From an uncultured Candidatus Peribacteria bacterium (GTDB lineage: Bacteria > Patescibacteriota > Gracilibacteria > UBA1369 > GCA-2718715), in NCBI GenBank assembly GCA_964451705.1, contig CAYVIV010000001.1:62807-126806 (forward strand): 64,000 nucleotides of DNA, in the 5' to 3' direction. The position numbers and the translations under genes are program-made. Each line of letters starts with the position of its first letter. Positions within the stretch are counted from its first letter, which is position 1. The notes under the pieces were generated by a model. The model worked only from the letters and a program-made list of their open reading frames with translations, did not search any database and was not told where the DNA came from. Below, piece by piece: positions 14,364 through 52,200 of this stretch.

Positions 14364-16271
14364 ATGAAGATTTCAGTAAGCTCACAGATATTTGACTCTA
14401 TTTCGAATTTGCACTCAAACTTTGTCTATGTGGAGGGGCTGGAATTCAAGCAAGATATGCAACATGAGCTGTATGATGGTTTAAACGAAGTTTTTTCTAG
14501 ATTGCGAGGTCATAAATCTATATCTGAAGATAAACAAATTCAAATTTACCAGGATGTATTAGAACAAATTGGTTTGGCCCACGCTTCGGTTTCGACAAAA
14601 AAGATGGTCGATTTGATTGTAGAAAAGAAAAAAGATTTAATTTTGCACCATCCTATTATAGATTTTTATAACTATTTTAGTTTACATACTTTAACGCCAA
14701 TTGGTGCTTACGATGTGGATCGTATAGATGGGGATATTTTGATTAGAAAATCTAATCCCACAGATAGTTTTAAAAAACTTGGCCAAAGCAAGTCTGATAA
14801 AGTAACACATGATTCTGTAGTAATGGCAGATAATGTTGATATTATGTGTTTGGACTGGGTTTATAAGCAGTCTGAAGGACAGAAGATTAGACCTCGTACA
14901 AAAAATGTACTATTTAGAATCGAGTCTCTTAACGATGAGATTGCAAATGCTAAACTCTTGAATGAATTTAAAGAAGATTTGTCTAAATTTTTTAATTTTA
15001 AAACTATTCAGATTGAAACTTTAACTAATTCAGATCCGGAATCTACAATTAAGCTATCAAAAGAGGCAACTGCGCGAAGGGATAGGTACCAAGATTATAC
15101 AGATATTTTAGCTCGTGGAGTTTCGGATGTGATAGTCTACGATGATTTAATGGCGGACTTGATAGAAGGTAAAAAGTTGAAGGTCAAACATGGAGTTGAC
15201 CCAACTAAAAGATCTCTTACGCTTGGGCATGCTGTTAACTATGAAAAACTTCGGCAATTTCAGCAGAGGGGACACGAAATCCAGTTTTTAATTGGTTCTT
15301 TCACTGCTATGTTTGGAGATCCTACAGATAAGTCTGAGTCTCGAACTATGAGGACCAAGCAAGAGGTCATGGATATGGCTAAAAACTATATTCAGCAGGT
15401 AACTATGATTTTAGATAAGTCGAAGCTTAAGGTTTTTTATAATGATAAGTGGTACTCTAAAATGCCTGTCGAAGAGTTTTTACGGCTTTTATCATCCAGC
15501 ACTGTTGCGCGTATGTTAGAGCGAGATATGTTTCAAAAAAGAATTGAGGATGGACGAGAGATTGGTTTGCATGAGCTTATTTATCCTATTTTGCAAGGTT
15601 ATGACTCTGTAGAAATGCAGTCAGATTTAACAGTTATTGGTACAGATCAAACATTTAATGAGCTGCAAGCTAGACCTTTGCAGAAAGATAGGGGACTAAA
15701 GCCTCAGAATGTAATTAGTATGCACATGTTGCTTGGGACAGATGGTAAACTTTTAATGAGCCAATCTCAGGGGAATTATATAGCAATGGATGACACTGTT
15801 GATGATAAATTCGGTAAATTAATGAGCATCCCAGATTCGGCAATCCAAACGTATGCCAATGCTTTGTCGCGGTACTCACGTAAGGAATTGCAGGCTTTGT
15901 TTTCTCGTTTGGATGCTGGGGAGAACCCACGTAATGTCAAAATGGATTTAGCAGAGCATATTGTTGCAAATTTTCACGGTGAGAAGGCGGCTCAAAAAGC
16001 TCGAGCAGGATTTAAGGAAATTTTTCAAAATAAAGGCCTGCCCGAAGATATGCCTAAATTTGTTGCTAAACCTGAGCACACAATTCTAGAGATTTTGCAG
16101 TTGTCATCACTGGTAACCAGTGGTTCTCAAGCCCGAAGGTTAATAGCTCAAGGTGCGGTGAAGGTGTATGAAGGTGATAAGATTATGGATGTCTCTATGA
16201 GTTTTAAAGCAGGTCAAAAGCTAGTCCTGCAGGTTGGTAAACTTAAATTTTTGGATTTAACAATTGAATAG
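14364..16271 (+). CDS. tyrS: Tyrosine--tRNA ligase fused to an N-terminal B3/B4 (PheRS-beta editing-like) domain
   Basis: 635 aa. Residues ~90-190 (HHPIIDFYNYFSLHTLTPIGAYDVDRIDGDILIRKS...RTKNVLFRIES) fit the solitary B3/B4 domain pattern. Residues ~245-635 are a TyrZ-type TyrRS: GVDPTKRSLTLGH, FLIGSFTAMFGDPTDKSESR, GKLLMSQSQGNYI, KFGKLMSIPDS and a C-terminal S4 domain (SGSQARRLIAQGAVKV). Confidence 0.8.
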   Translation: MKISVSSQIFDSISNLHSNFVYVEGLEFKQDMQHELYDGLNEVFSRLRGHKSISEDKQIQIYQDVLEQIGLAHASVSTKKMVDLIVEKKKDLILHHPIIDFYNYFSLHTLTPIGAYDVDRIDGDILIRKSNPTDSFKKLGQSKSDKVTHDSVVMADNVDIMCLDWVYKQSEGQKIRPRTKNVLFRIESLNDEIANAKLLNEFKEDLSKFFNFKTIQIETLTNSDPESTIKLSKEATARRDRYQDYTDILARGVSDVIVYDDLMADLIEGKKLKVKHGVDPTKRSLTLGHAVNYEKLRQFQQRGHEIQFLIGSFTAMFGDPTDKSESRTMRTKQEVMDMAKNYIQQVTMILDKSKLKVFYNDKWYSKMPVEEFLRLLSSSTVARMLERDMFQKRIEDGREIGLHELIYPILQGYDSVEMQSDLTVIGTDQTFNELQARPLQKDRGLKPQNVISMHMLLGTDGKLLMSQSQGNYIAMDDTVDDKFGKLMSIPDSAIQTYANALSRYSRKELQALFSRLDAGENPRNVKMDLAEHIVANFHGEKAAQKARAGFKEIFQNKGLPEDMPKFVAKPEHTILEILQLSSLVTSGSQARRLIAQGAVKVYEGDKIMDVSMSFKAGQKLVLQVGKLKFLDLTIE

Positions 16272-18320: not shown

Positions 18321-18743
18321 TTATTTTATATTTATATCTTTTGTCAAGCGGGGTGAGGGGGACTCTAGCTGATTGCAAACTAGGGGAATTAAAAATTTTT
18401 GCAAATAAAATTTTTTGGCAGGCAAATTTGTAAAAATTTATGAAGGTTGGGCAAAATTAAAAAAATCTAAATTAGAGATAAATTTGGCCTATACACATAT
18501 GAAAATTTAAAAATCTAAATTTAGCTTTTAATATAAAGGTATCTATGCTCATTAAATTTATAAAAAGCTCTTAGAATCGAATATAGGAGGTCGCCATAAG
18601 AGTTTAAATGATATTATGCCAGATTAAAACCGGGGTAGCTATAGATTGGCTTTAACTACTAGTGTTAGTTCGCACAAGATACATTGTGCGGTATAACATT
18701 GCGGGTCAAACTTGAGAAGGTTTTGCACAAAATTCAATAAGAT

Positions 18744-18780
18744 CAAAAAAACCACAACCCTGTTTTATATGAGTTGTGGT
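18744..18780 (-). terminator. Rho-independent terminator of the 24166-18805 operon
   Basis: The minus strand reads ACCACAAC-(14-nt loop)-GTTGTGGT followed by TTTTTTT. It starts 25 nt after the stop of the 61-aa ORF. Confidence 0.6.
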
Positions 18781-18804
18781 CTATTGACTCTTGGCTCTTG
18801 CTGA

Positions 18805-18990
18805 CTAACTTTTTATTAAATGGTAGAATTCTTTAATATTTATAACTAGCACTCTAAGAGCTAATAGGCTTAAAGCAATTACTATATAGTTACTATATTC
18901 AGGGTAATATTCGAGCCCCTGGATTCCTAAGAAATAAAATATAGCTAAGGATATGATGGTTTGAAGAATGATGAGATTACTTTGTTTCAT
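18805..18990 (-). CDS. Small two-TM membrane peptide, unknown function
   Basis: 61 aa with two hydrophobic helices (LIILQTIISLAIFYFLGI; YIVIALSLLALRVLVI). It lies 19 nt downstream of the 1136-aa ORF and just upstream of the terminator. Confidence 0.5.
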   Translation of the reverse strand: MKQSNLIILQTIISLAIFYFLGIQGLEYYPEYSNYIVIALSLLALRVLVINIKEFYHLIKS

Positions 18991-19009
18991 TATAAAATTT
19001 TGTTAGTTA

Positions 19010-22000
19010 TTAGAGTTGTGTTTTATGACCTGTTGCATAATATGCATTTTGTAGTTGCTGTTCGCTATAACCCCTCATGCTAATTACAGATAGAAGTTCA
19101 GCTTCTAGACTTCTATTATTAAGGCCTTTAAAGTACAGTTTAGCTAGCTCATTTATATTCATTTGTAGTAACCTTCTTTTAAAGAGATTGAGTTTAGATA
19201 CATTACTGCTAACTTCATCTACACGTTCGTACCATCTTTTACGTTGCTCTTTTCTTTCTCCACTAAAGGCATATTTACCACTTTCATAGGCTGCATCTAA
19301 TGTTCCTGTTGCTGCATTACCTGCTGCCTTCCATGTTCCGCTAAAGGTACCGTGATTTATCAAAGGAAGACCTATAGATATGCCTAGGGTTGTTAGGAGA
19401 GTTTTTTCTGCTGCATTTAGAACTTTGAGACCTACGCTTCCACTGTTAATCAATTTGTCTGCAAGCTTAGCATAATTGCTCGTAGTATTGTTTTTTGCTA
19501 GGTGAGTAAATACTTTTAGTTCATCCTTATTTGCAATATTCGAAAGCTTTGTTAAGTCTTTACGATGTTTTAAAACAGTTGCAGTTAGTTCCTTAGCTTC
19601 GTTTATCAACCCTAAATTATTGTTTCTAAGTGCTTTAAAGTCTTGATTTGCATGCTTACTTAATTTTCTATTATTCATGTTTAATGCCTTTGCTAGAGTC
19701 TCATAGTTTGTGTAAGGCGTTCCATTAGGTTTCTTAAATATAGCTAGCAACTGTCTTTCTATTTGTGCTCGGCGGTGTGTTAAAGCAACTACTTGTGCGT
19801 TTACATCTTGAAACTTCTCAAAGGCTTTAGCACCAGCTTGCACAGCGGCTTTGTTGACTCCTAGCCCCGCAGTTAAGGCTGTTGCTACTTTATTGTTTAT
19901 GCCTCTACGCACGACTCTAATACCTTTCATAATTGGTTCAAGTGCTGTTTTACTAGCTCTGTAAATAGCTCTGGGGATTCTGTAACCTAGACCTAACACA
20001 CTAGATGCTGCTGCAGGTAGGAATGCTGCTGCATGAAAGACATTTGGTGCATTAATATAGGCTCTTGGATGAGTCCAGGCCCTACCTAGTCTATTGAAGC
20101 CTTGGAGGTTTTTACCAAAATGACTACTCCCCTCTGTGAATCCCCTCCAACCTTGTTTAAAGGTTTCTTTAGTTCTTGCAAGTGCTGTTAGTGGCTGTGA
20201 GGCGTCTACTAATTTATTGAGATCATTTGCTTTATCATATAGTTTATTTGCTGTATTTACTCTATTACCTATTATATGCCCAATTTTATTCCCTACTCTG
20301 GCTAATATAGGGGCTTTAGAACTTGCATGGGCGACTTTGGCAGCTCCTGTACCTAGTTTAGATCCAACGAGTGCAGCTCTTAAACCTACTCCAACTCCTC
20401 CAAATAAAGTTAAGACATCTGTACCAAGTTGTAATAAACCAAAACCTGCCGTAGTTACTCGTTCCCAGCCACTTAGCTTGTCTCCAGCTAATGTTTGGCC
20501 ACGAAAGACTTGAGTAAAGGTAAGTATGGTACCTAGAACTGGTACAAACATTCCGACTGTTTCTCCAACACTGACTCCTATTTTAGAGATAGATGAATTG
20601 CCACTAGTGGCATCTAGTAAATGTGGTAGTCCCACTACACCTCCAACTACCCCTGCCATTCCTACTCTCTTGATTGCACCATAACGAATCTCTTCGACAA
20701 TTTCTTCACCTGTTTTGCGAACTTGTGATTTGGTCACTTGCTGACTACTGATCTTATCCATGTCTTCTGCTGTAGTTTTTAGCAAAGTATCTGTTTGTTG
20801 CCCAGCTACTGTTTTAGATAGGCTTGTTCCAGAAGTTTTCAATCTACTGGCTTCATCGAAGGCAGCAGTGTAGGAACTAAAATGAGACTGGGCTTTTGCA
20901 TGGGCCGCTCTATGATTTGTTAGTTCTTCACTAATTTTCGTGCGAGATGTTTCGTCTGCAGCCTGAGATAGTTTTTCTAGTAAGTGTTTTTCTTGGCTTA
21001 AAGCTTTTTGGTTAAAGTCTTCAATGTACTGGCTAAACTGTCCCATTTTTTTATTGATATCTTTGCTGTTTAGATTACTGCTTTGCAGATTATCTATATC
21101 TGGAATTTTACTTACTAGTTTTTTCGTTTGATTAAATGCTTTCTCAGTAGTTGTAGCATTCCTAATTGTCTCTGAACTGGCATAGGCTAGTGTTCTACCA
21201 GCATTTACGTGAGATGCTTGAAACAAGTGGCCTTTCATAAAGCGTGGCCAGATCCTGGCAGCTCTGTAGAATGTTATTAGTCGTTGTCCAATAAAATCAT
21301 ACTTTGTGACTCCTGATACGTTGTCAAATGTTGCTAAAATTAAGAGTTCTAGTGGTAGTGATTTTAGGTCTCTTGCCATTAGTTTTAATTCTTGTTTGGC
21401 TGTTTCACTAAGTTTGTCATTAGAATTAATTGCTGCAATAAACTCAGTTTGGAAGGTGCTGACTCTACTTTCGGAGAGGAATCTTTTTAATTTCATTAAG
21501 TTAGCCTTTGTCTGTGCTGGTACTTTGGACATTACGTTATCATTCTTGATATTGCGTAACAGTGTGTCTAAGGTAAAGTGTTGTATTTGTCTTAGATGTC
21601 TTTTCTCGATGCCTATCTTAGTAGCAGCAGTTGCAAATATTTTTGCAGACCTGATGGATAGTGGAAGTCTAGATAAACCTGTGATTTTATCCAGTCCTAG
21701 CTGTCTAGATATTTTACCAAATGTACTTTGATCTTTGTTTTCATCTAGAAATACGTCATCTACCATATAGTTAATATCCTCCAAACTATCTACACCTGGT
21801 ACTTTAAGCTGACTATTTGCAATTGCATTATTTATAAGAGAGTTGATTTCACCATAGTTTTTACTAGTATCAAGAGCCTTTTTGATTTGTTGATACTGTC
21901 TGGGCGCAACTAGTTTTTCTAGTATATTCAGGGCAATTGTTTTTTTTCTTTGATTACTTTGCAAGCTAGCAATTGCACTTTTTTGCATTTCTTGTTTGTG

Positions 22001-22420
22001 CTTATCTTCAAAGATTAGGCTAACTTGGTTTTTAAACAAGTTACTATTAATTAGTTGTGCGGTTTCTCTAAATAACTCTTCAAACTTATCATGTTCGTTG
22101 TTTACTAAGCTTTCTATCATTGCAGATATCTTTGTTTTAACTGGTGCGGCTAACTGTTCTGCCACCCCTGTGTTTTGGTTCAGGCTAAGTTGACTTTTTA
22201 GCCAGCTTTGAAGGCTTTGGAACATTTCATCTTTTAACATCTGCCTTTTATTGCTTGCGCGTCCGTAAACTTCTAGCATAGATTCTAACATTTGTCGGTA
22301 CCCACTAATAGCTTCTGTCGTGTTTGCGAGTTGAAATTCCGTAATCAGCCTAGACCTATCTATTGTAGCTGGCACTTGTGAACTAGCTTTTTCTCTAGTT
22401 GTAGGTTTGTTGTCATTCAT
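19010..22420 (-). CDS. Large (1136 aa) helical protein of unknown function with an internal glycine-zipper hydrophobic core
   Basis: One uninterrupted ORF with no N-terminal signal peptide. Long K/E/Q/L-rich helical stretches flank a Gly/Val/Leu-rich block (GMAGVVGGVVGLPHLL...VGMFVPVLGTILTF...AGFGLLQLGTDVLTLFGGVGVGLRAALVGSKLGTGAA). I see no family signature I recognise. Confidence 0.7.
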   Translation of the reverse strand: MNDNKPTTREKASSQVPATIDRSRLITEFQLANTTEAISGYRQMLESMLEVYGRASNKRQMLKDEMFQSLQSWLKSQLSLNQNTGVAEQLAAPVKTKISAMIESLVNNEHDKFEELFRETAQLINSNLFKNQVSLIFEDKHKQEMQKSAIASLQSNQRKKTIALNILEKLVAPRQYQQIKKALDTSKNYGEINSLINNAIANSQLKVPGVDSLEDINYMVDDVFLDENKDQSTFGKISRQLGLDKITGLSRLPLSIRSAKIFATAATKIGIEKRHLRQIQHFTLDTLLRNIKNDNVMSKVPAQTKANLMKLKRFLSESRVSTFQTEFIAAINSNDKLSETAKQELKLMARDLKSLPLELLILATFDNVSGVTKYDFIGQRLITFYRAARIWPRFMKGHLFQASHVNAGRTLAYASSETIRNATTTEKAFNQTKKLVSKIPDIDNLQSSNLNSKDINKKMGQFSQYIEDFNQKALSQEKHLLEKLSQAADETSRTKISEELTNHRAAHAKAQSHFSSYTAAFDEASRLKTSGTSLSKTVAGQQTDTLLKTTAEDMDKISSQQVTKSQVRKTGEEIVEEIRYGAIKRVGMAGVVGGVVGLPHLLDATSGNSSISKIGVSVGETVGMFVPVLGTILTFTQVFRGQTLAGDKLSGWERVTTAGFGLLQLGTDVLTLFGGVGVGLRAALVGSKLGTGAAKVAHASSKAPILARVGNKIGHIIGNRVNTANKLYDKANDLNKLVDASQPLTALARTKETFKQGWRGFTEGSSHFGKNLQGFNRLGRAWTHPRAYINAPNVFHAAAFLPAAASSVLGLGYRIPRAIYRASKTALEPIMKGIRVVRRGINNKVATALTAGLGVNKAAVQAGAKAFEKFQDVNAQVVALTHRRAQIERQLLAIFKKPNGTPYTNYETLAKALNMNNRKLSKHANQDFKALRNNNLGLINEAKELTATVLKHRKDLTKLSNIANKDELKVFTHLAKNNTTSNYAKLADKLINSGSVGLKVLNAAEKTLLTTLGISIGLPLINHGTFSGTWKAAGNAATGTLDAAYESGKYAFSGERKEQRKRWYERVDEVSSNVSKLNLFKRRLLQMNINELAKLYFKGLNNRSLEAELLSVISMRGYSEQQLQNAYYATGHKTQL

Positions 22421-22429
22421 GATATATAT

Positions 22430-24166
22430 TTATTTTTTAAAGTTATAATTCTCTAAGTGTTTGATCCTGGCGTAGGTAGCCTGACCAAAAATCGATGTTG
22501 CCGGTGGAATTGTTTGATTTGTTAGAATAGCCCTTTGTTTAAGTGTAATTGTAGCTAAGCTATCTTGAATTGTTACTGTGTAATCTATGTCTTTTTTAAG
22601 TTTGTTTCCATTTGTTGCAGCATTTAATAGCTTCAATTTATCAATTTCATCTTTACCAGTTGTAATAGTGCTGTTTTCTGCAACATACAAGGCATTTGAT
22701 GCTGGTATGTTTAGACCAGCAGCTATTGTGAACTTATGTTGTTTATCATTGTGGACCTCTGTTTGTTTACGATTTGTAGGTTGTTGTGTTGCTGTGATGG
22801 TTTCAACTGTCTCGATTGTTTGTGTGTTTGGTGCAGCTACCTTGTGATCTGCTACCTGTTCACCTTGTTCGAATCTTGCATAGTCTTTATTGAAAGTTAC
22901 AATGTGTTTAGCCCGAGTTAAGACTGCAGAGAATATTGCAAAGGCTCCCACACTAAGTTTGGTTGTTGGTACAGAACTATCAGAAGCTAGTATGTAGTAT
23001 ATTTTTTGGCGATCCAGCATACCTAGAAATTCTAGTGTCGAAATTAACATACTTTTTTGACCTCGTTTTTTGAGTATCTCTATACGTTCTTTAATTTGAG
23101 CAGCACTTAATTTAGGTCTTTTTGCACTTTGTGCATCAGTTTCTTCTTGTGTTTGTTGATGGGTTGACGGCACTAAAACTGTAGAGTCATCTGTATTTTC
23201 AATCTGTTCTAGAGTGGGTTGTGGGTTTACAGTCTCAACATTTGCTCTTACTGTCTCTCTATGAGTATCATAATGCGTTTTGATAGTGCTGACTTTGCCT
23301 TGTAAGTCTTTATCATCAAGAGGTTTATACAATGTTGATGTATCTATTGAAGTCCAAGATTTTCCTGTGTTACTACCATCAATTCGATAGACTTGCGGTT
23401 TGTCTTGCTCTTGAAAATTAATAAGTTCATATGCATTATCATCAGTTTTTCTAAATGCAAGGTAAGCTAACATACTTGGTTCAAATAGCATCTTAGCTAG
23501 TAGAGCCATGCCTTTGTTAGGTATTCTGACTAGTTCATTTTGAGTGACAGCCTCTGTTTCTAATAATTTGATGAGTTCTGTTTCACAATCACCATTATTA
23601 AAGTCTGTGTCCCCAGTCGTGTCACCTGAATCTAATGTGATAAAGCTGTCACTGCTAGTATCTGGCTTATTGGTTGCGATATAGGTTTTCATTTGCCCAA
23701 TCTTGTCTGGATCGAGCTGATTATCTACAACTTTGCTATATGCTGACCCCTCTCTAAAGTCGTCTGCATTACTCCACTGCTCTAAACTTAGATCTTCACC
23801 TAGACTGTAATTTTGAGTACCCCCTTGGTAGTGCAAGCAATATAGGTACTTTAGGTAGGTGTGTTTGTCTTCAAGAGATGTAATGCTTGCTGGAAACTTA
23901 TACTTTTCATATGGGTCTTGGGTGTGTCTAAGTTGGTCTAGTTTTATAGTTCTATAATTTGACTTAATACTTTCTTGCAGTTCATGGCTAAGGTTTGCCT
24001 TTTGAGTATTTGTAACCTCGAGATCAGAGCGCAATTTGTAGAGTGCTCGAAAGTCTGTAATGCTTTGACTACCATTTGTTTCAAGATAGTATGGGCCTTG
24101 ATTTGGGCGTGATGGTACGACCATTTGTGAGGGGGTTATTTTGAAATTAACTAAATTATACCACAA
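22430..24166 (-). CDS. Hypothetical 578-aa protein, unknown function
   Basis: Long ORF that ends 9 nt upstream of the 1136-aa ORF. No signal peptide or recognisable motif. It has an acidic/Thr-rich middle and a Q/T-rich linker. The true start may be the internal Met at MVVPSRPNQ. Confidence 0.65.
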   Translation of the reverse strand: MWYNLVNFKITPSQMVVPSRPNQGPYYLETNGSQSITDFRALYKLRSDLEVTNTQKANLSHELQESIKSNYRTIKLDQLRHTQDPYEKYKFPASITSLEDKHTYLKYLYCLHYQGGTQNYSLGEDLSLEQWSNADDFREGSAYSKVVDNQLDPDKIGQMKTYIATNKPDTSSDSFITLDSGDTTGDTDFNNGDCETELIKLLETEAVTQNELVRIPNKGMALLAKMLFEPSMLAYLAFRKTDDNAYELINFQEQDKPQVYRIDGSNTGKSWTSIDTSTLYKPLDDKDLQGKVSTIKTHYDTHRETVRANVETVNPQPTLEQIENTDDSTVLVPSTHQQTQEETDAQSAKRPKLSAAQIKERIEILKKRGQKSMLISTLEFLGMLDRQKIYYILASDSSVPTTKLSVGAFAIFSAVLTRAKHIVTFNKDYARFEQGEQVADHKVAAPNTQTIETVETITATQQPTNRKQTEVHNDKQHKFTIAAGLNIPASNALYVAENSTITTGKDEIDKLKLLNAATNGNKLKKDIDYTVTIQDSLATITLKQRAILTNQTIPPATSIFGQATYARIKHLENYNFKK

Positions 24167-24262
24167 GCCGTCAAATTTTGCACGTCTTTTTTTATTTTTG
24201 TAAAGTTATCTGGCTTTAATAAGCCAATTTGGGGTGCTAGATTACTTGTTTTGTTTTTTACT

Positions 24263-25909
24263 TTAGAGTTCTTTGAGCATGTAGCTACCGTCTAAATGAT
24301 AGCCAAGTTTTTTATAGTATTCTCGAGTGCCAATAGCAGAAATCACAGCAATTTTTTTATATCCTTCCAGCTTAGCTTGTGCCTCTGCGGCTTGCATAAG
24401 TTTTGTGCCTAGGCCAAGGTGTTGGCTTTTGGAGTTGAGTTTGGTTTTGGATAAGCTTTCTTGCTTGCCATAGACATGTAGTTCTCGAACAATGGCAGCA
24501 TCTTTGAGCTCTGGAATAAAAACATCAGAATTATTAAGGCAGCGCAGTCGTACTAAGCCAATTAATTTGTCTAATTGAGGCTCTACAACAGATATAAAGT
24601 ACTCTGTTGCCTGGTTACTTTGGTATTTGTAGCTTTGGATTTCAGTATTTTTTATATCAAATGCTTGGTCTTTAATTTCTCGACAGCGAATGCATTTACA
24701 TTCGACCTTTTTATCTTTAAGTAGTTGTCGCATGTTTAGGGTTTTGGAACCCTTTAAAACTAGGTCCGATGGGAAATCACGTAATATACGGATGATCCTG
24801 CAATATTCTGGGACAATTTTCTTTGTAGCAGCTAGGAGTTCAAATAATTCTGGGTCTGTATATGCTTTGTAGATGCTCGGGTCTGCCTCTACCATTTTAG
24901 CCAGCTTGGTATATGGCACTACCATACATGGATAGATTTTAATGTAGTCTGGATTGAGAATATCTTTTTCAAAACAGTCGTGAATAGTTTGCAGGTCTGA
25001 TTCTAGAGTGGATTTAGGTAGGTTTGGCATTATATGATGGCAAATTTTCAGGCCAGCATCGCGGCAGAGCTTGGTGGCAGCCACCGATGTTTTGAGGTCG
25101 TGGCCTCTTTCGCTAAATTCATTTACTTTGTCATCTGTGGTTTGGATGCCAAGTTCTATACCGGTCACACCATAGTCTCGCAGACGCAGAATTTCTTCTT
25201 TGGTCACCCAGTCTGGCCGGGTTTCGACCCAAAGGCCAACACAGCGAGAGTTTGCTGTTTGATTCTCATGAATTAAGTCCTCTAGTTTAGCCTGGCTTAT
25301 GTTTTGGTTGGCAACTGCTAGTTCTTCAATGTCCCCTGGCCCTTGGTTGAGGGCGTAGTAGATTGATTTTATAAAATGTAGCTGATAATCATGCAGATAG
25401 GATGACCAAGTCCCCCCTGCCGTGCGAATGTCAATTTTGCTGGTGTCATGCCCTTGTGTTTTTAATCCATTCAAACGAGCTTTGACTTGAGTATATGCAT
25501 CGAAATCATTACGGACAGCTCTAAGCATAGCTGGTTGGTTGGAGAAATAACTTTTAGGCATGCCTGGTTGTGTTGGACAGTAAATGCATTTGCCCGGACA
25601 GCCAAATTCCTTGAGCATAACAGTAATATTGGCTATTCCAGAAAGAGTACGTACTCTACGCTTGGTAATAAAATTGAGTACCTGCTGGTTGGCTGCTAAA
25701 GCTCCACTGTCTACCAGTTTGTTATAAGCGGCTACTAGCTCAATATTGCGAGGTGGGGTTAGCTTATGTTTTTTTGTGAGTTTGTTGCGTAGTTTTTCGA
25801 GCGTGCGTTTATCTAGCATTTCGGCCCCTGCCATCTCTATGAATTCATAGATTGCTATAATCACCTCTTTGGCGAGTTGTTCGTAGTTTTTACGTAATTC
25901 GTAGTTCAT
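24263..25909 (-). CDS. elp3: Elp3-family radical-SAM/GNAT tRNA uridine(34) carboxymethyl-forming enzyme
   Basis: 548 aa. The radical-SAM cluster motif is GCPGKCIYCPTQPGMPKSY. The C-terminal GNAT segment QHLGLGTKLMQAAEAQAKLEGYKKIAVISAIGTREYYKKLGYHLDGSYMLK closely parallels the canonical Elp3 tail (QHxGxG...ISGIGxRxYYRKLGYxLxGPYM). Confidence 0.85.
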   Translation of the reverse strand: MNYELRKNYEQLAKEVIIAIYEFIEMAGAEMLDKRTLEKLRNKLTKKHKLTPPRNIELVAAYNKLVDSGALAANQQVLNFITKRRVRTLSGIANITVMLKEFGCPGKCIYCPTQPGMPKSYFSNQPAMLRAVRNDFDAYTQVKARLNGLKTQGHDTSKIDIRTAGGTWSSYLHDYQLHFIKSIYYALNQGPGDIEELAVANQNISQAKLEDLIHENQTANSRCVGLWVETRPDWVTKEEILRLRDYGVTGIELGIQTTDDKVNEFSERGHDLKTSVAATKLCRDAGLKICHHIMPNLPKSTLESDLQTIHDCFEKDILNPDYIKIYPCMVVPYTKLAKMVEADPSIYKAYTDPELFELLAATKKIVPEYCRIIRILRDFPSDLVLKGSKTLNMRQLLKDKKVECKCIRCREIKDQAFDIKNTEIQSYKYQSNQATEYFISVVEPQLDKLIGLVRLRCLNNSDVFIPELKDAAIVRELHVYGKQESLSKTKLNSKSQHLGLGTKLMQAAEAQAKLEGYKKIAVISAIGTREYYKKLGYHLDGSYMLKEL

Positions 25910-37884: not shown

Positions 37885-38319
37885 ATGCAAACTGTTAATC
37901 ATCACTCTTGTGGCACCGTGGTTTACCACCAATTAAATGATAAAGTAGAATATTTACTGCTTCAATACCCCCAAGGACACTGGGATTTTGCTAAAGGTCA
38001 TATAGAGGAGAATGAGAGCACTGTTGCCTGTGCACTGCGAGAACTAACGGAAGAAACTGGACTAAATAAGATTCAGCTAATCGATGGGTTCTTTCATGAA
38101 TTATCTTATTACTATCGTCAAGATGCTGTTGCGCATTATAAAAAGGTCGACTTTTTCTTGGTGGAAGCCTTTGAGACTCAAGTTAAAATTTCACATGAAC
38201 ATCAGGATTTCAAATGGTTGCCATTCCAGGATGCCCTAGAGTTAGTTAGTTTTGAAAATGCCAAAAACCTGCTTATTGCTGCGGATAGTTTTTTAAAAAC
38301 TCTGCATGGGCCTGCTTAA
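37885..38319 (+). CDS. Nudix hydrolase
   Basis: 144 aa. GHIEENESTVACALRELTEETGL matches the Nudix box GX5EX7REUXEEXGU. Confidence 0.8.
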   Translation: MQTVNHHSCGTVVYHQLNDKVEYLLLQYPQGHWDFAKGHIEENESTVACALRELTEETGLNKIQLIDGFFHELSYYYRQDAVAHYKKVDFFLVEAFETQVKISHEHQDFKWLPFQDALELVSFENAKNLLIAADSFLKTLHGPA

Positions 38320-39817
38320 TTTGCTCTAAATATTCTAGGTCTTTAAGCTGAGTGTCGCTAAAAATATTTTCTAATGTTTGGTAGCTGGATTTATAGTTAA
38401 TATAGTCTGTATTGTATTTCACGTGCCTTAAATACCAGTCTTTATAGTTTTTAAGCCACTGTGAGTCAACTTGAAGTGTGTCAATTTGCATATCTGGATT
38501 TAACTTTAGGACTAATTCTAAATGTTCTAATGTCCAAGGGTCTTGTTTAAAGACTCTTAGGCTAAGTGCTGGGTCTTGCGTGCTTTGTGCTAAGGCGTAA
38601 AGCACAGGCGTGTCTATGGGGTTTTGTTGTATGTGTTGGCTGAGTTTGCCTTCTTGGACTAAATAGTCTTTATGAGCCACAAGGCTACTGCTTGCATACT
38701 GAGGATACCTAATAATTACCAGGCTCAAAACTGCAATGGTTGTTAGCAATACTGTGGCAGTTTTTTGTATATTATTAAGTTTAGCTTTGCTGTCTGGAGC
38801 TTTTTGGCTAATGAGTACTATGAGCACAAAAATACTCAGTCCAAAATTAATGTTTAGATCTAACATGTTATGTAGCGTAAAAGGTACTAAGGCCAGTATG
38901 CTTGCACGTGGTAGTTGGCGTAAATATCCCCAAAAAATGTATATGCAGACAGCTAGTATTAAAAAACCATGTTCCAGACCAATGTCGAGTAATAAATTAT
39001 GGGCATGTATAGATTTATTGAGGGGTATTGTTTGTACCTGTGGATACAAATACTGAAAGCTTTCAGCACCTGTACCAACCAGGCTTTGTTTTAAATCAAA
39101 GAGTTTTGGAGTGTTGCGAAAGAATTCTAGACGATGGGTCGCACTAGATATCCCTTGGGCTTGCTGGAGTTTGTGTTGGTAGTTGTCAGAGAACATAGAA
39201 GATAAGATAGCAATTCCAAGCATACTAACTACTCCAAGAAACAGTAGATACTTTTTAGACTGAGCTTTAAATGATTTAGAAAAGTAAATTTTCACTCCCA
39301 TAAAAGCTAATATCAAGGCCAAGGCAATTCTAGATTTGCTTAAAAAGATTGTGATAATATTTAGCAGGACCAATGGTCCTTGAATAAATGGTGTAATTAA
39401 CAGCATTAGGCTTGCTAATGAATTAGGGTATATTTGTCTGGGGTCAAAGATGTTCATATAAGTCCCAAAGCCAAAATCAAAGTTAAAATATTGATAAATT
39501 GCTAAGCCAAACATTAAAATGCTTAGTGCTTTGAATAGTTTTTGTTTGCAACTGTCTTTTATAAAAAAGACTGCTGGCCCCAGTACTGCTGCTAGATAAA
39601 GTAGGCTTTGTTCTAGAGATTGGCTTGGAATTTGTGAATAAAGAAAACTTATCACAAATAAGGCAATAGCAATGATATGCTTTTTTTCTAGATAATTAAC
39701 TTTAAAACTTGCTAGGCACATCGCAGTAAATAAGCCAAGAGCACCAAAGCTACTATTGTAGTCATTAAAGATGAGACTACTTATTAATGCTAAAAAAATT
39801 GCAAATTTATATATCAT
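38273..39817 (-). CDS. O-antigen ligase / Wzy_C-family polytopic membrane protein with a soluble C-terminal domain
   Basis: The track ORF runs to 39976, but its first 53 codons are antisense to tRNA-Leu. I use the ATG at 39815-39817 (MIYKFAIFLALI...). The protein has ~10 TM helices plus HAHNLLLDIGLEHGFL, which is the Wzy_C signature. Confidence 0.65.
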   Translation of the reverse strand: MIYKFAIFLALISSLIFNDYNSSFGALGLFTAMCLASFKVNYLEKKHIIAIALFVISFLYSQIPSQSLEQSLLYLAAVLGPAVFFIKDSCKQKLFKALSILMFGLAIYQYFNFDFGFGTYMNIFDPRQIYPNSLASLMLLITPFIQGPLVLLNIITIFLSKSRIALALILAFMGVKIYFSKSFKAQSKKYLLFLGVVSMLGIAILSSMFSDNYQHKLQQAQGISSATHRLEFFRNTPKLFDLKQSLVGTGAESFQYLYPQVQTIPLNKSIHAHNLLLDIGLEHGFLILAVCIYIFWGYLRQLPRASILALVPFTLHNMLDLNINFGLSIFVLIVLISQKAPDSKAKLNNIQKTATVLLTTIAVLSLVIIRYPQYASSSLVAHKDYLVQEGKLSQHIQQNPIDTPVLYALAQSTQDPALSLRVFKQDPWTLEHLELVLKLNPDMQIDTLQVDSQWLKNYKDWYLRHVKYNTDYINYKSSYQTLENIFSDTQLKDLEYLEQIKQAHAEFLKNYPQQ

Positions 39818-39888
39818 AGTTTTTTTTAAATTATCATAGACAATAATCTTTCTTTTTGCTATTTTTATTTTACTTTTAGACACTTTAT

Positions 39889-39975
39889 GCCGAAGTGGCG
39901 GAATTGGTAGACGCGCGGGTCTCAAAAACCCGTTCAGGCAACTGAGTGAGGGTTCGATTCCCTCCTTCGGCACCA
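39889..39975 (+). tRNA. tRNA-Leu (anticodon CAA), CCA encoded
   Basis: I folded it by hand. Acceptor GCCGAAG/CTTCGGC; D arm GCG-GAATTGGTAGA-CGC; anticodon arm CGGGT-CTCAAAA-ACCCG (anticodon CAA); long variable arm TCAG-GCAA-CTGA; T arm GAGGG-TTCGATT-CCCTC; then ACCA. Confidence 0.9.
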
Positions 39976-40011
39976 TATAGTGTTTTTAACTGTGCCTTTT
40001 ATAGATATTGC

Positions 40012-49240: not shown

Positions 49241-52200
49241 TTAAAACTCTCTATATGCTGGTGTGTATTGTGGTAGGTTGTAGCCAGTTGTGTAGTTGTA
49301 GTTTTGATAGACGCGGTTTTGTGTGTTTTGAGTTTGGAATAAGTATGGATTGCGTGCTGCTCTAATTAGTCTAGCTGTCATTGCTACTAGGTCTCCTATA
49401 GTGGCATTAGCTTCTGGATTTATTGTTAGGCTGAGTTCTTGGAACTTTTCTTGTATTGCTCTAACTCTGCTAGAAACTGCCTCTTGAGTACTTAGGTCTG
49501 CTTGTGGTTCTAAAAGTTTTGCAGCGATTAGTAATGTTTGTGCTGCTTGTATTTGTCTTAGTGGCTGGTAGGCATTTAGATTACCGTTGGCATCTGGAGA
49601 AATAACTCCAAATTTTAGGAGCGAGTATGCAGGTACCAACCACCAGTGGTTATTTGCATTTGCTATAACTTCTGCATCTATATCATTTATATAGGCAATT
49701 AGCTCATCTGCGTTGGGTTCAAATAGCGGTAATTTTTGAGTTACCTCAAGTAGTTTTTCTGTAAAGCTAAATAAATGCGCATTGGTAGCAGCTTTGTCGT
49801 AGTTAGAAACCTGTTTGGCATTTGCAAACTGTCCTTTGTAGACTCCAAGTTCATGCAGGTAGACTAGGTCGTTGCAAATTGGATTGTTCATATTCATATC
49901 AGTATACAAGACCATACATTTTGGATTGGGTGGTGGTGTGTTTTGATGTTTGTTTTTAAAGAATTTAGCAAATGGTCCACCTGTGCCTTGGCCAGAATAA
50001 TATGGGAAGCCCATACCAAGCGAGCTGCCTTGCATGTAGATTTTTGGCTGAGCTCTAAAGGCTTTTTCTATAATCTCTACATATTTAATGATTTTGCCTT
50101 CTGGGCTTAGGTTAATGCCAACAATTTTTAGATTGTAGGTGCCTGGTGTTTGGATCTTGGATGTATTGTAATTTTCTATCATTACTAGGTCTGGTCCTTG
50201 TAGTTCTGCTTCTCTTGTAAAGCGATTACACGCTTTGCGGACAAAGTTTTTACTGACTGTTCTCACGAAATCCTGTGAGCAATATGTGTAGAGGGCACCT
50301 TTTTGTCCTCTGGTATTTCTATCGGAGCTATGACCTTGGTATGAGAGTTGTAAGAGGCCTAGATTCATGAAATTTGGGACTTCTATATCAAAGTTTATGT
50401 TGTCGCCTATTTCGAACTCGGGAGTTATTTCTGCGTCAAGCTTGTCTGAACCTGTAGTAATTCCATCTTCATTTCGGTCGCTAGGGTCGATAATATCTAT
50501 AAAGGAACTAGTACGGAAAATGTCTGGATTGGTCTCAGATAATGAATTACGGTCTACTAACAGGATACTAGGTTGGCTGTTTGTTTCGTCTGGCACAAGA
50601 ATTCCAGTTGCCTTAAGGACTGTGCCTGTGTTTGTGTTAGTTCTAATTAGACGCCGGCCAAGATGTGGCTCGGTGCCTTCTATGAATATCAGAATTTCTC
50701 TATTAATAAGTTGATCAGATAATATTGATGTTTCACAGCTAATTTTACTACCTGCGACTGCAGTGTTGTTATTAGAACACTTGAAAATGTTATTTTTTAG
50801 TTTTTCTGCTCGTAGTTCTTTATCTGCTTTGATTTCTATTGTTCTACTTTCGTGTTGGCTTATACTAGAGTTATCACTGAGAATTTTAAAGGTATAAAAG
50901 CCTGGGCTAAAAGTGTTTTCTATATCAAAGCTATTAAGATTGAGGCTTAAGTCATTCTGACTTATTGTCTTACATGGTGTGATAATGTTTAGCTTTTGTT
51001 GAGTCTCAATGTTTGAAATTTGAACTTGATACTTATCTACAGCTTCCAAGCATATAAAACTACCTTGAATTAGGTCGGTATTGCCTCCTTCTACTAATAA
51101 ATCTTGTTTGGCAATTTCTAATAAGACGTCTGTTTCTAGTTCTAGTTCATTTTCAGCATTTAGGATATTTAGTTTGATAGCACTGCAACTACTGTTATGG
51201 CAAGCAAGCATGTCACCTAGGTTGAGTGTGGCAGTTTCCTGGGTGTCATCGACTTGTACAGAGCTAGGCCGGGTTATGATTTCATCGTTTAAGGTGAAAA
51301 TATATTTATTGGCCTGTTCTGGGAGATTTTCACCAGTGATTTCTAGACTAACATTGTCAGCAGATAGCAGACTTACTAGTTGGGCATCTACCTGTATATC
51401 ACTGTCTGATTCATCGTCGCTATCGCCACCGTCGTCGTCGCCGTCACTGACTACATTTCTGATTTCGAATGTTTTGTTAGTTTCGAGTTTTTGTGTTTCA
51501 AAGACTATGATACTTGCATCATATGTGCCATTTTCTAGGTTTGCAGTATTATTATTGGCTTCGAATAAAAGGCTACCTGGTGTTACAGCAATTAGATCTA
51601 CTATAATTTTTTTATTGGAACCTGCTTTGCTTAATTCCAGTTTAATAGTTTCTTGCCTGAGCTCTAGGTTTTCTGGGAGATTGTTTATAAATTCTGCATT
51701 AGCTGATAATTCAAATAATACTGTATTGTTATCCCTTGCTCTTACTGTATCTTGGCTTGCTGCCTGGGCACTTAGTGCCGCCTGGGCAGCTTGTAGTCTG
51801 TCTTTTACATGTATTATGAGAATTTTGCTTCTGTTTTTATTACCAGCAGGCCCATCGGCAAAGTTTGATTCACCAGGTGGCACCTGACTTTCAATTTCGA
51901 TTGCAAGTAAATAATCTTTTCTAAAGTCTAGCTCAACATTTTGCAGGCTGGTAATATCAACAATTTGTTTGCTAAATGTTCTCACATTTTTGCTAGCTGT
52001 TTTATGAATAACATTGATATCTGTGTCAGTAGCGGCTGCAGCATCCCCTGCTGCCGCACCAGCTGCTGCTGCTTGAAATCGTATATTAAGCTGAGTACCA
52101 GATTGCTGGCTACTAAAATCTATTGCTTCAAGAAGGTTTTTTGCTAATAAGGCTGTGATTGTTTGTGGGTCTACTTCTAAAAGTATTGATTGGTAATTAT

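Follow-up and report, generated by a model that had tools for sequence, protein, structure and literature searches.

A polymorphic three-gene cassette of Candidatus Peribacteria encoding a large helical protein with a PT-TG-like core, and its possible role in conflict or recognition

The three genes, their promoter and their terminator

The window examined in this work is a stretch of 64,000 nucleotides from an uncultured Candidatus Peribacteria bacterium. As described in an earlier note on this DNA, it contains three tightly packed open reading frames on the minus strand, at positions 22430-24166, 19010-22420, and 18805-18990, with 9 nt and 19 nt between successive frames. The start of the first of these required correction. 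The TTG at 24166, from which a protein of 578 aa had been derived, falls within an extended -10 promoter element (TGgTATAAT; positions 24163-24155, minus strand), which was read directly from the sequence, lies inside the TTG-start version of the reading frame and is identical in the window and in the related loci L003, L004, and L005. Gene 1 starts at the ATG at 24124 (22430-24124, minus strand) and it encodes a protein of 564 aa. Separate gene calls match this start (564 aa for the homolog P0003 and 562 aa for P0004), and the stretch that the window shares with L005 extends exactly to this ATG. Hence, the upstream non-coding region that had been noted is present, but its bounds are 24125-24262 rather than 24167-24262. 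This conserved region (minus strand), which is comprised of the promoter and a short 5'UTR, bounds the exchangeable cassette described below on its left side. The right boundary is formed by an intrinsic terminator (approximately 18745-18782, minus strand), where identity with L005 restarts at the first base of the stem. The presence of this terminator was confirmed; it consists of a 12-bp stem followed by U7 (dG -20.9 kcal/mol, z = -4.7) and none of 200 shuffled sequences was as stable; it was missed by a consensus scanner because its loop is 10 nt long.

Gene 1 encodes a soluble protein rich in Thr, Asp, and Asn, for which no family or PDB matches were found and whose AlphaFold2 model was unusable (pLDDT 33). 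The family-defining component is gene 2 (19010-22420, minus strand), a basic (net charge +59), all-alpha protein of 1136 aa. The N-terminus of this protein is not hydrophobic and it therefore carries no Sec signal, in agreement with the earlier description. Its mostly helical nature and its internal Gly-rich hydrophobic block were also borne out, the AlphaFold2 model being wholly helical and residues 581-720 containing 19% Gly. The structure prediction was of low confidence and no informative fold match was obtained. Gene 3 (18805-18990, minus strand) encodes a 61-aa peptide with a basic N-terminus, which is predicted to form a two-TM hairpin with the loop motif Y-P-E-Y. Its two hydrophobic peaks have 17-residue KD values of 2.3 and 2.6 (19-residue maxima of about 2.1), and a two-peak hydropathy profile was seen in all 12 of the gene 3 peptides compared.

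Family distribution and the conserved core of gene 2

None of the three window proteins gave a match with a meaningful E value in Pfam, NCBIfam, PHROGs, PADLOC or the PDB sequences. The earlier statement that they show no motif assignable to a known family holds for these libraries, but the term orphan is too strong because an exhaustive profile search recovered relatives of the large protein in 39 representative clusters. The named genomes that contain this protein are Patescibacteria/Candidatus Peribacteria MAGs, and the proposed setting in a reduced-genome bacterium, here one of CPR type, was supported. The three genes occur in the same order in every locus with readable neighbours (L001, L005, L007, L008, L009, L010, L011-L015, and L018-L021), where one or two proteins of 550–860 aa are found together with an all-helical protein of 1040–1340 aa and a two-TM peptide of 57–99 aa. 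As this trio is retained in relatives down to about 20% identity, all three genes are real, and they constitute a co-inherited unit with its own promoter and terminator. The gene 1 homologs from L005, L007, and L008 show 25-32% identity to that in the window. In comparison with L001, the peptide is 54% identical, the core of gene 2 is 57% identical and the whole of the large protein 31%, so that conservation of the peptide tracks that of the core.

The cassette is single-copy and positionally stable, and its neighbours are housekeeping genes; in a distant clade it adjoins PBP and GH18/SLH cell-wall genes and has diverged much more rapidly than the neighbouring NDK. It appears to be broadly and vertically retained in both clades. 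A search of 2.9 million viral contigs recovered no member of the family, and the cassette is neither phage-borne nor embedded in a mobile element that could be seen. The loci examined and their surroundings showed no signal peptide, trafficking domain or secretion apparatus, and an export route is therefore missing.

Homology of gene 2 is collinear over its full length with the divergence spread throughout, and in all pairwise comparisons the 100-aa segment of highest conservation lies in a core comprising residues 583-700 (20321-20674, minus strand). An HMM of this core gave one match per locus. It consists, in order, of a marginally hydrophobic helix (H1), a PT-TG-like helix-loop-helix and a hydrophobic Gly-zipper helix (H2), with P627, G630, G646, and D668 as invariant residues. 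Helix H2, within which Asp668 is located, is 26 aa long with a mean KD of 1.52; it contains no Lys or Arg and a single Asp that is invariant in 27 of 27 members. In the same 27 members its C-terminal flank carries a net charge of +4.7, and the N-flank one of +2.4. The mean KD of H1 is 1.0, and due to this weak hydrophobicity a two-helix membrane hairpin is not assured.

The relationship of this core to the PT-TG domain (Pfam PF14449) is seen most clearly at the level of the family. The stretch that aligns, residues 620-672 (20405-20563, minus strand), covers profile positions 6-52 of 68. The window core alone is not significant (E = 0.54; 10.7 bits against a gathering cutoff of 23.5 bits), whereas the family consensus (29.1 bits, E = 9.6e-7) and the member P0016 (25.4 bits) are above the cutoff. 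PF14449 was matched by six of the 27 members at E < 0.01, always on the conserved core. The consensus of the near clade gave no match, the clade of the window having diverged below Pfam detection. A profile built from the window protein and P0002 nonetheless retrieved the PT-TG-positive P0016 at E = 3.7e-13 and its sister member P0014 at 3e-20. Based upon these comparisons, we consider the Gly-rich core to be PT-TG-like, probably a diverged PT-TG domain located between two hydrophobic helices, where the link is transitive and the PT-TG domain itself is short and Gly-rich.

The PT-TG domain was first defined by PMC3113570, and all of the characterised proteins containing it are from antagonistic toxin systems (PMC3113570; PMC13483458). 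The core of gene 2 shares with them the helix-loop-helix pattern (V/I)-P-x-x-G-T ... G-x-(T/S/D)-L-(S/A/T)-G-x-x-L ... E-R. The conserved PT-TG stretch has been reported to be a loop (PMC13483458); in the AlphaFold2 model of gene 2, the residues G641-S650 also form a loop between helices, and the conserved G-x-T-L-A-G-D-K-L stretch is modelled as an interhelical loop. The presence of no other known domain resembles the PT-TG singleton group of the 2026 Pandoomain survey (PMC13483458). In contrast to known PT-TG proteins, the domain is located in the middle of a protein of 1040-1340 aa with hydrophobic Gly-zipper helices on either side, Ser or Thr usually takes the place of the Asp conserved in the PT-TG loop, and no trafficking or toxin domain is present in the family. 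The host lineage also differs, as the CPR are absent from the text of this survey, in which the word Patescibacteria has 0 occurrences (PMC13483458). The survey applied a filter of CheckM completeness > 95% (PMC13483458), which would probably exclude CPR MAGs of this kind.

Replacement of the cassette and selection upon its genes

A comparison of the window with L005, a single contig of 7.3 kb, by means of blastn and base-level alignments, delimited an exchangeable unit that contains all three coding sequences (18783-24121, minus strand). The flanks of the two loci are 96.0% (25819-24122) and 91.4% (18780-18339) identical at the nucleotide level, but in the stretch from the gene 1 ATG to the terminator no nucleotide similarity was detected. 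At the protein level, Elp3 is 98.6% identical between them, whereas gene 1 is 32% identical, the large protein 21-26% and the peptide 29%. A closer allele (31%) is present in another species, in which Elp3 is 83% and RecG 74% identical. The sequences of this one contig indicate that the cassette is exchanged as a whole between near-identical genomes. Within gene 2, the pairwise comparisons revealed no independent swapping of the region C-terminal to the core, which is unlike the classical polymorphic toxins.

The genes of the cassette differ in the selection acting upon them. For gene 1, dN/dS values of 1.2-1.5 were obtained, with hot patches, in comparison to 0.05 for Elp3. One hypervariable patch, residues 96-200 (23525-23839, minus strand), was revealed by comparison with the otherwise near-identical L003, where 27 non-synonymous and four synonymous changes together with indels are clustered in this patch, with no changes in RecG or in the C-terminal 789 aa of gene 2. 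Gene 1 is present as a tandem duplicate at several loci of the distant clade. The N-terminal 330 aa of gene 2 have a dN/dS of 0.28, and within one allele class gene 2 is under purifying selection. A single-copy, stable module with such selection on gene 2 would also fit a resident cellular machine.

Possible functions of the cassette

We tentatively favor the possibility that this is a cassette-polymorphic conflict or recognition locus, encoding a putative membrane-active effector, a membrane partner and a specificity factor. According to this proposal, the self-contained cassette, whose three genes evolve rapidly and in concert, would be retained at a fixed chromosomal site in marine Peregrinibacteria-like (CPR) bacteria, and deeply divergent alleles would be exchanged whole through recombination within the conserved flanks that contain the promoter and the terminator. 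The large protein may act on or insert into a membrane by means of a hairpin, in which the PT-TG helix-loop-helix is placed between the marginal helix and the strongly hydrophobic Gly-zipper helix with its invariant, buried Asp. The two-TM peptide could be its cognate intramembrane partner, serving either in immunity of the producer or as an aid to assembly or release, and the fast-evolving gene 1 would provide specificity, for example in targeting or recognition. Selection arising from cell-to-cell conflict or from host or kin recognition may keep many alleles in circulation.

The earlier note had likewise suggested an effector active on membranes that is paired with a small membrane protein. 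The PT-TG-like core, the whole-cassette replacement and the dN/dS of gene 1 above 1 lend indirect support to this suggestion, but its specific analogies to IpaB/YopB/SseC, VasX/Tme, and colicins did not hold up, as neither the proteins of the window nor the 27 members of the family gave a match to any of them. Among distant-clade gene-1 proteins, one of seven gave a weak SseC match (E = 0.0055), an exception that is probably compositional. The T3SS translocators IpaB/YopB/SseC (PF04888) are likewise helical with internal hydrophobic segments, but neither the large protein nor gene 1 of the window matches them and no T3SS genes are present, nor is a T3SS known from CPR bacteria. Staphylococcus aureus TspA/TsaI, Vibrio cholerae VasX/TsiV2, Tme/Tmi, and the pore-forming colicins are membrane effectors with membrane immunity proteins. 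They resemble gene 2 in being leaderless helical proteins with Gly-rich hydrophobic helices, directly followed by a gene for a small multi-TM protein. However, no sequence or fold similarity to them was found, gene 2 lacks a T6SS, T7SS or colicin-release context and is much larger, and here the whole cassette is polymorphic, not just the toxin-immunity end.

Of the alternatives, the one that survives best, but which we consider rather unlikely, is that the large protein serves as a resident scaffold of the envelope or membrane, anchored by the H1/H2 hairpin in the membrane of the producer itself, with its two large basic helical domains on the cytoplasmic side and the PT-TG loop facing outwards. 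In this case the peptide would act as a membrane subunit, with gene 1 as a soluble partner, and the extreme allelic diversity would reflect pressure on a structure that is exposed or targeted, for example as a receptor for phage or host, and not a toxin function. The positive-inside charge of the helix flanks (+2.4 and +4.7) and the strongly basic C-terminal part fit such a topology, and the lack of a signal peptide and of nearby secretion genes, the single-copy and positionally stable state beside housekeeping genes (PBP and GH18/SLH genes in the distant clade), the full-length collinear homology and the purifying selection on gene 2 are all consistent with it. However, only about 50 residues would be exposed, yet this loop is the most conserved and not the most variable part, and antigenic variation therefore fails to explain the divergence of the cytoplasmic domains and of gene 1, which is soluble. 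In a housekeeping machine, moreover, one would not usually expect a whole cassette to be replaced at 21-32% identity in genomes that are 96% identical, H1 is weakly hydrophobic, and the affinity to PT-TG favors toxin systems.

It is improbable that the cassette is an anti-phage abortive-infection system in which the giant protein senses infection and disrupts its own cell's membrane by means of its Gly-zipper helices, with the peptide restraining it and gene 1 as a fast-evolving sensor. No export route is needed by such a system, in keeping with the missing signal peptide; the dN/dS above 1 and duplication of gene 1 fit it, and cassettes exchanged within conserved flanks are reminiscent of a defence hotspot. 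However, defence hotspots usually hold unrelated systems, whereas all alleles here have the same homologous three-gene architecture and the module seems vertically retained in both clades. Further, there was no PADLOC match, and the 27 members yielded no typical sensor or effector domain such as a nuclease, ATPase or NTPase.

It is very doubtful that gene 2 is a classical polymorphic toxin belonging to the T7SS LXG/WXG (or T6SS/CDI) type, with its immunity gene downstream. The PT-TG-like core and the small gene directly downstream would suit it, as would the Gram-positive-type envelope features of Peribacteria such as sortase and S-layer genes (PMC4736985), but LXG, WXG, RHS, VgrG, and FHA are absent from the 27 members and three clade consensus sequences, no secretion genes occur at any locus examined, and neither a toxin domain nor a toxin fold of known type was detected. 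In addition, the PT-TG-like region is in the middle of the protein and is followed by about 430 collinearly conserved residues with no abrupt C-terminal swap. Lastly, the idea that gene 2 is a tape-measure-like protein of a phage tail, domesticated or persisting as a remnant together with accessory genes, is close to refuted, since the Foldseek matches against viral models, mostly tape-measure proteins (best E = 1.2e-4) that are likewise very long and all-helical with an internal Gly-rich hydrophobic segment, had TM-scores of about 0.07 and RMSD > 35 Å and thus agree in general architecture alone, while PHROGs gave two single-member matches to unnamed families among the 27 members, NCBIfam gave no such family, the viral contigs lack the family, and no locus contains phage genes.

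For the conflict or recognition locus that we tentatively prefer, a conceptual comparison can be made with allelic identity, kin-recognition and polymorphic toxin loci such as Proteus Ids and Myxococcus TraA/Sit, which are exchanged between conserved flanks. Like this cassette, they show deeply divergent homologous alleles at a fixed site in near-identical genomes and a co-inherited membrane-protein pair, with diversifying selection on part of the locus, but the cassette proteins are unrelated to theirs and no delivery system is known for the cassette. The view that the system is undescribed was sustained within the libraries searched, and our computational analyses revealed a conserved trio and hydrophobic segments and no housekeeping homology. 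The PT-TG-like core and the exchange of the whole cassette point to what may be an undescribed system of cell-to-cell conflict or recognition in these bacteria.

Organization and distribution of the three-gene module

The three minus-strand ORFs that the earlier note described as an orphan operon, viz. gene 1, gene 2 (coding for a big protein of 1136 aa) and gene 3 (coding for a 61-aa peptide), are indeed tightly packed, with intergenic gaps of 9 and 19 nt, and the terminator claimed to follow them (~18745-18782, minus strand) is real. It consists of a 12-bp stem followed by U7 with a folding energy (dG) of -20.9 kcal/mol (z = -4.7), none of 200 shuffled sequences folded as well, and its absence from the output of the consensus scanner is due to its loop of 10 nt. 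The TTG of the version of gene 1 starting at 24166 sits within an extended -10 element (TGgTATAAT, 24163-24155, minus strand) and for this reason the ATG at 24124, which gives a protein of 564 aa, is the likely start. Independent gene calls fit this start (564 aa in the relative P0003 and 562 aa in P0004) and, in line with it, the conservation with a divergent allele stops at the ATG at 24124. The other reported features of the module are also borne out. The big protein, which is basic (net charge +59), has no signal peptide, an N-terminal hydrophobic segment being absent; it contains a Gly-rich hydrophobic block (19% Gly across residues 581-720) and its AlphaFold2 model (mean pLDDT 59, pTM 0.39) is entirely helical, while two hydrophobic segments are evident in the 61-aa two-TM peptide. 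Searches of Pfam, NCBIfam, PHROGs, PADLOC, and the PDB sequences gave no match to any of the three proteins, and the family is new to the curated libraries searched. The genome is compact, with 36% GC, and the window also codes for SLH/Ig surface proteins, WecG and GatB; together with the distribution of the family (see below), this suggests a Peregrinibacteria-like CPR bacterium.

The description of the operon as an orphan goes too far. An exhaustive HMMER search of 1.84 billion representatives, with a profile derived from the window protein and its relative P0002, identified 39 relatives of the big protein, most of which are 1040-1350 aa long with the matched core at an equal relative position. 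Word-index searches gave two matches each, comprising near-identical copies and one full-length relative (P0002; 29% identity across 99% of the query), and a word-index search with the core alignment found no relatives, probably because Gly-rich words swamped the candidate list. The family has two branches, which we will refer to as the near clade, containing the window, and the distant clade, with NDK-linked loci. Seven species-representative genomes carry the family; five of them are MAGs under the label Patescibacteria group or Candidatus Peribacteria, another has no label beyond "bacterium" and the seventh is listed as Bacteroidetes. The contig L012 (JAJRSV010000433.1), in a MAG labelled Bacteroidetes, carries a typical distant-clade module followed by NDK, and it is probably a mis-binned CPR contig. 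A scan of the GTDB representative genomes with the two-sequence alignment found nothing, the window included, and hence the window genome is not among these representatives.

The linkage of the three genes, examined across the relatives, is retained, the gene order being identical in every locus with readable neighbours. These loci include the contigs L001 (gene 1 of uncertain length, 1120 and 65 aa), L005 (550, 1087, and 60 aa), L007 (583 and 1080 aa, with the start of a peptide at the contig end), L008 (571 and 1086 aa and an uncalled 57-aa peptide), L009 (752, 1283, and 69 aa), L010 (585 aa, partial, 1068 and 78 aa), and also L011-L014, L018, L019/L020, and L021. The order is kept in L015 (3603-7256) as well, where the big gene is split into three ORFs of 480, 153, and 545 aa and could be a pseudogene or reflect sequencing errors in this MAG. 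The split of the big gene in L003 was considered as a frameshift and rejected, as it is a scaffold gap (run of N). The gene 1 proteins of the near clade are homologous (25-32% identity), and those of the distant clade form a second family of 640-860 aa, often tandemly duplicated; the comparison of the two by hhalign gave a probability of 1.2% and they are therefore not detectably homologous. In all loci the gene for the two-TM peptide, with a basic N-terminus and two hydrophobic peaks, lies directly downstream of the big gene, where a polymorphic toxin system would have its cognate immunity gene. The loop motif of this peptide is Y-P-(E/Q)-Y in the near clade and W-x-W-(D/N)-x-x-P in most members of the distant clade, where four of six peptides also have the C-terminal tail NDYxE…GEGEPM. 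In some distant-clade loci (L012, 4316-7984, and L013, 4357-7848) an extra helical protein of 1160-1220 aa is encoded ahead of the module; this protein also has a hydrophobic, Gly-rich central part, but no BLAST-level or core-HMM similarity to the big protein. A 1111-aa ORF in an unrelated metagenome contig (L037, 11565-14897, minus strand), which adjoins an Elp3 of 43% identity, gave a weak core-HMM match (29 bits) at residues 922-1028, near its C-terminus, and may represent a different architecture with the same domain.

The neighbours of the module are housekeeping genes. In the near clade these code for Elp3-like and RecG proteins, and the order in the distant clade is PBP, GH18/SLH, module, NDK, class-IV aminotransferase, and folate genes. 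In the loci read, no secretion, phage, or mobile-element genes adjoin the module, the exception being a Y1 transposase ~10 kb away in L019, and a tblastn search with the core consensus gave no match to plasmids. The gene directly upstream of the cassette codes for an Elp3-like radical-SAM/GNAT protein (24263-25909, minus strand), relatives of which (37-84% identity) are common in metagenomes, with 507 confirmed stretches, making it a useful anchor for this lineage. Among 80 Elp3-anchored loci, all those whose downstream sequence was readable lacked the cassette after Elp3; the two closest, L032 and L033, terminate inside Elp3. An exact-match search of the JGI metagenome collection with a 30-mer of the 5′UTR was negative. 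On the other side, an AT-rich non-coding region of ~420 nt (18321-18743) separates RecG from the cassette terminator; this region shows 91% conservation in L005, and its counterpart in L001 contains a 293-aa orphan ORF, no remnant of which is detectable in the window region.

Some other features of the window may be mentioned here. The tyrosyl-tRNA synthetase (14364-16271, plus strand) has a B3_4 domain, which normally belongs to the PheRS beta subunit, fused to its N-terminus, and L001 and L003 share this fusion. The listed 567-aa ORF (38273-39976, minus strand) overlaps a tRNA-Leu(CAA) gene (39889-39975, plus strand), so that its true start is probably further downstream. Two giant orphan ORFs of 1257 and 1728 aa (49241-53014 and 53273-58459, both minus strand), which lack Pfam matches, are mutual paralogs (27% identity over ~800 aa), each with an N-terminal signal-anchor-like segment, and they adjoin an 891-aa Ig-like/SLH surface protein (46400-49075, minus strand). 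This pair looks like the large, strain-variable extracellular proteins known from Peribacteria (PMC4736985).

The PT-TG-like core of the big protein

The core of the big protein (residues ~583-700), made up of a hydrophobic helix (H1), a PT-TG-like segment and a Gly-zipper helix (H2), is its most conserved part in every comparison. Its consensus is LP…G…(helix)…E…D…EA..GF-V-P-x-x-G-T-x-L-D-F-K-x-x-x-x-G-x-(T/S)-L-(S/A)-G-x-K-L-x-x-x-E-R-x-x-x-x-G-F-G-x-x-G-x-V-x-D-x-A-x-x-x-G-G-x-G-x-G-L-R-A-G, where P627, G630, G646, and D668 are invariant. The Pfam family PF14449 (pre-toxin TG), the only one matched by more than one of 27 members, was matched by six of them with E < 0.01, and the isolated cores align to positions 5-52 of the 68 in its profile. 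The gathering cutoff for this family (23.5 bits) is exceeded by P0016 (25.4 bits) and by the family consensus (29.1 bits, E = 9.6e-7); by itself the window core falls short of it (10.7 bits, E = 0.54) and the near-clade consensus gave no match. As the HMMER profile from the window and P0002 reaches the PT-TG-positive P0016 with E = 3.7e-13 (and its sister P0014 with 3e-20), the window protein is predicted to possess a diverged PT-TG-like core, the assignment being transitive via P0016/P0014.

PT-TG was first defined as an alpha-helical pre-toxin domain in Gram-positive nuclease toxins (PMC3113570) and has subsequently been recognized in toxins of the T6SS, T7SS, and CDI types as well as in a sizeable "singleton" group (PMC13483458). 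Its hallmark is a ~15-residue loop containing Gly, Asp, and Arg and a TG motif, predicted to be without secondary structure (PMC13483458). In the corresponding loop of the window protein (G641-Q-T-L-A-G646-D-K-L-S-G-W-E-R654) the Gly and Arg are retained, Thr takes the place of the Asp (Ser or Thr in the family), and TG is changed to AG or SG. In the AlphaFold2 model G641-S650 is a loop between helices (pLDDT ~70-80 for residues 620-670), in agreement with the loop that is the conserved element in the 2026 survey (PMC13483458). The position expected for PT-TG is immediately N-terminal to a toxin module. The ~430 residues that follow the window core, which might form such a module, are helical and basic; two more hydrophobic stretches occur in them, and they matched no known family or fold. 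The text of the survey does not mention Patescibacteria (PMC13483458), and we infer that its genome completeness filter of >95% probably excludes CPR MAGs.

The membrane-related features of the core were assessed across the 27 members. H2 (655-680 in the window) spans 26 aa with a mean KD of 1.52, is devoid of Lys and Arg, contains a single invariant Asp, and is followed by a flank with a net charge of +4.7; H1 (586-604) is marginal (mean KD 1.0), and the PT-TG segment of 50 residues that separates them is charged and apparently soluble. Between the window and L001 the peptide and the core show 54 and 57% identity, respectively, versus 31% for the whole big protein, and this parallel conservation fits a direct contact between them.

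The likeness to T3SS translocators (SseC/IpaB/YopB) that had been suggested was not supported, since PF04888 is matched neither by the window proteins nor by the 27 members and the loci contain no T3SS genes; one gene 1 protein of the distant clade gave a weak SseC match (E = 0.0055). A Foldseek comparison of the big-protein model with the PDB likewise gave no match (best E = 0.17). No match came from PDB profile searches in which the two gene 1 families, the core, and the additional giant protein from L012 served as queries, and a gene 1 model based upon three near-identical sequences (pLDDT 33) is unusable. Across the family, PHROGs gave only two single-member matches, to unnamed families.

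Replacement of the cassette at a fixed chromosomal site

Evidence for replacement of the cassette comes from a single contig, L005. It shows 96.0% nucleotide identity with window positions 25819-24122, which cover Elp3, the promoter, the 5′UTR, and the ATG of gene 1, and 91.4% identity with positions 18780-18339, the similarity resuming right at the first base of the terminator stem. No nucleotide similarity between 24122 and 18780 was detectable by blastn or base-level alignments. The predicted unit of exchange is thus exactly the three coding sequences. Comparisons of other contigs with the window indicate that the divergence of the cassette is decoupled from that of the genome. In L003, which carries the same allele (Elp3 99.1%), the cassette is identical over the 789 aa that are readable; in L005 (Elp3 98.6%) the identity is 32% for gene 1, 21-26% for the big protein and 29% for the peptide; and in L001 and L032, from another species with the module at the same chromosomal site (Elp3 83%, RecG 74%), it is 31% for the big protein. 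The near-clade alleles form two deep groups, {window, P0002} and {P0007, P0010, P0011, P0013}, and several near-clade fragments seem to represent additional alleles. The NDK proteins of the distant clade share 75-91% identity, compared with 26-45% for the big protein, 28-63% for gene 1, and 19-87% for the peptide.

Within an allele class, dN/dS is 1.2-1.5 for gene 1, 0.28 for the first 330 codons of gene 2 and 0.05 for Elp3. The differences of gene 1 from L003 lie nearly all in a hypervariable patch at aa 96-200 (23525-23839), with 27 non-synonymous and four synonymous changes plus indels; the RecG and the remaining readable cassette of L003 are nearly or completely identical to the window, and Elp3 has 27 synonymous and five non-synonymous differences. 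The mosaic nature of the patch may be due to recombination over a short tract or to diversifying selection acting locally. A DGR-like origin of the patch was dropped, the substitutions being mixed by eye rather than adenine-specific and no reverse transcriptase being seen. A co-inherited unit, divergent alleles at a fixed site and contrasting selection (purifying for the core, relaxed or diversifying for one of the components) together constitute the usual signature of a conflict or recognition locus.

Possible functions of the locus and their significance

Because of this signature, the PT-TG affinity and the membrane elements, we favor, with somewhat less than even confidence, the reading that the locus codes for a membrane-active effector, its cognate partner within the membrane, and a rapidly evolving factor for specificity. 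The big protein would be the effector, the peptide would serve in immunity, assembly, or release, and gene 1 would provide the specificity factor. The main rival, a resident scaffold anchored in the membrane, with external pressures driving its diversity, we consider unlikely but the strongest of the alternatives; the predicted helices are compatible with an N-in/C-in hairpin within the producer's membrane, and also with a soluble protein that buries its hydrophobic helix until insertion elsewhere or with monotopic membrane association. An abortive-infection defence cassette appears quite improbable, and PADLOC-DB gave no match at E ≤ 1 for any of the three window proteins.

A classical T7SS-type toxin, a class in which PT-TG does occur, is very improbable and largely excluded. 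No LXG, WXG, RHS, VgrG, FHA, or known toxin domain was found in the 27 members and three clade consensus sequences, and unlike in the polymorphic toxin systems (Zhang/Aravind), Pfam revealed no N-terminal trafficking or secretion domain in the big protein. In 10 pairwise comparisons of identity per 100-aa window the N- and C-terminal parts were similar, with a peak at the core; as there is no abrupt drop past the core, the classical pattern of a conserved N-terminus and a swapped C-terminal toxin is absent. Polymorphic toxins vary in their C-terminal toxin domain, whereas here the whole cassette varies. Least probable of all, a tape-measure protein or its remnant is largely excluded as well, since the Foldseek matches to viral models, mostly tape-measure proteins, had a TM-score of ~0.07 (a likeness of architecture only), no NCBIfam tape-measure family was matched, and 2.9 million viral contigs contained no member of the family.

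We provisionally classify the locus as a PT-TG-containing conflict-type locus whose architecture and mode of polymorphism are previously undescribed. More doubtfully than the effector reading itself, it might represent a distinct type of locus by which CPR episymbionts interact with other cells and which is polymorphic as a whole cassette, where the trio would set which cells (host or kin) are attacked, attached to or tolerated, balancing selection would keep alleles that are ~20-30% identical, and recombination at the promoter and terminator would shuffle them. The PT-TG likeness would then reflect an ancient shared membrane-translocation module or convergence.

The CPR/Patescibacteria are thought to live attached to other cells, and to our knowledge hardly any of the molecules they use for attack, attachment or partner specificity have been described. 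The three-gene locus, compact and lineage-wide despite genome reduction, provides a concrete candidate for such partner interaction, and the exchange of its cassette between otherwise near-identical genomes is a population-genetic mark of conflict or recognition. Its conserved flanks offer primers or probes for allele diversity in marine metagenomes. The locus also bears on the question raised in 2026 of the role of PT-TG and the nature of the "PT-TG singleton" proteins. A role as a cleavage site has been proposed for PT-TG; in the present family, where hydrophobic helices flank the domain and no other part of the protein is as conserved, this arrangement speaks for a function connected with the membrane and against one as a cleavage site or passive linker.
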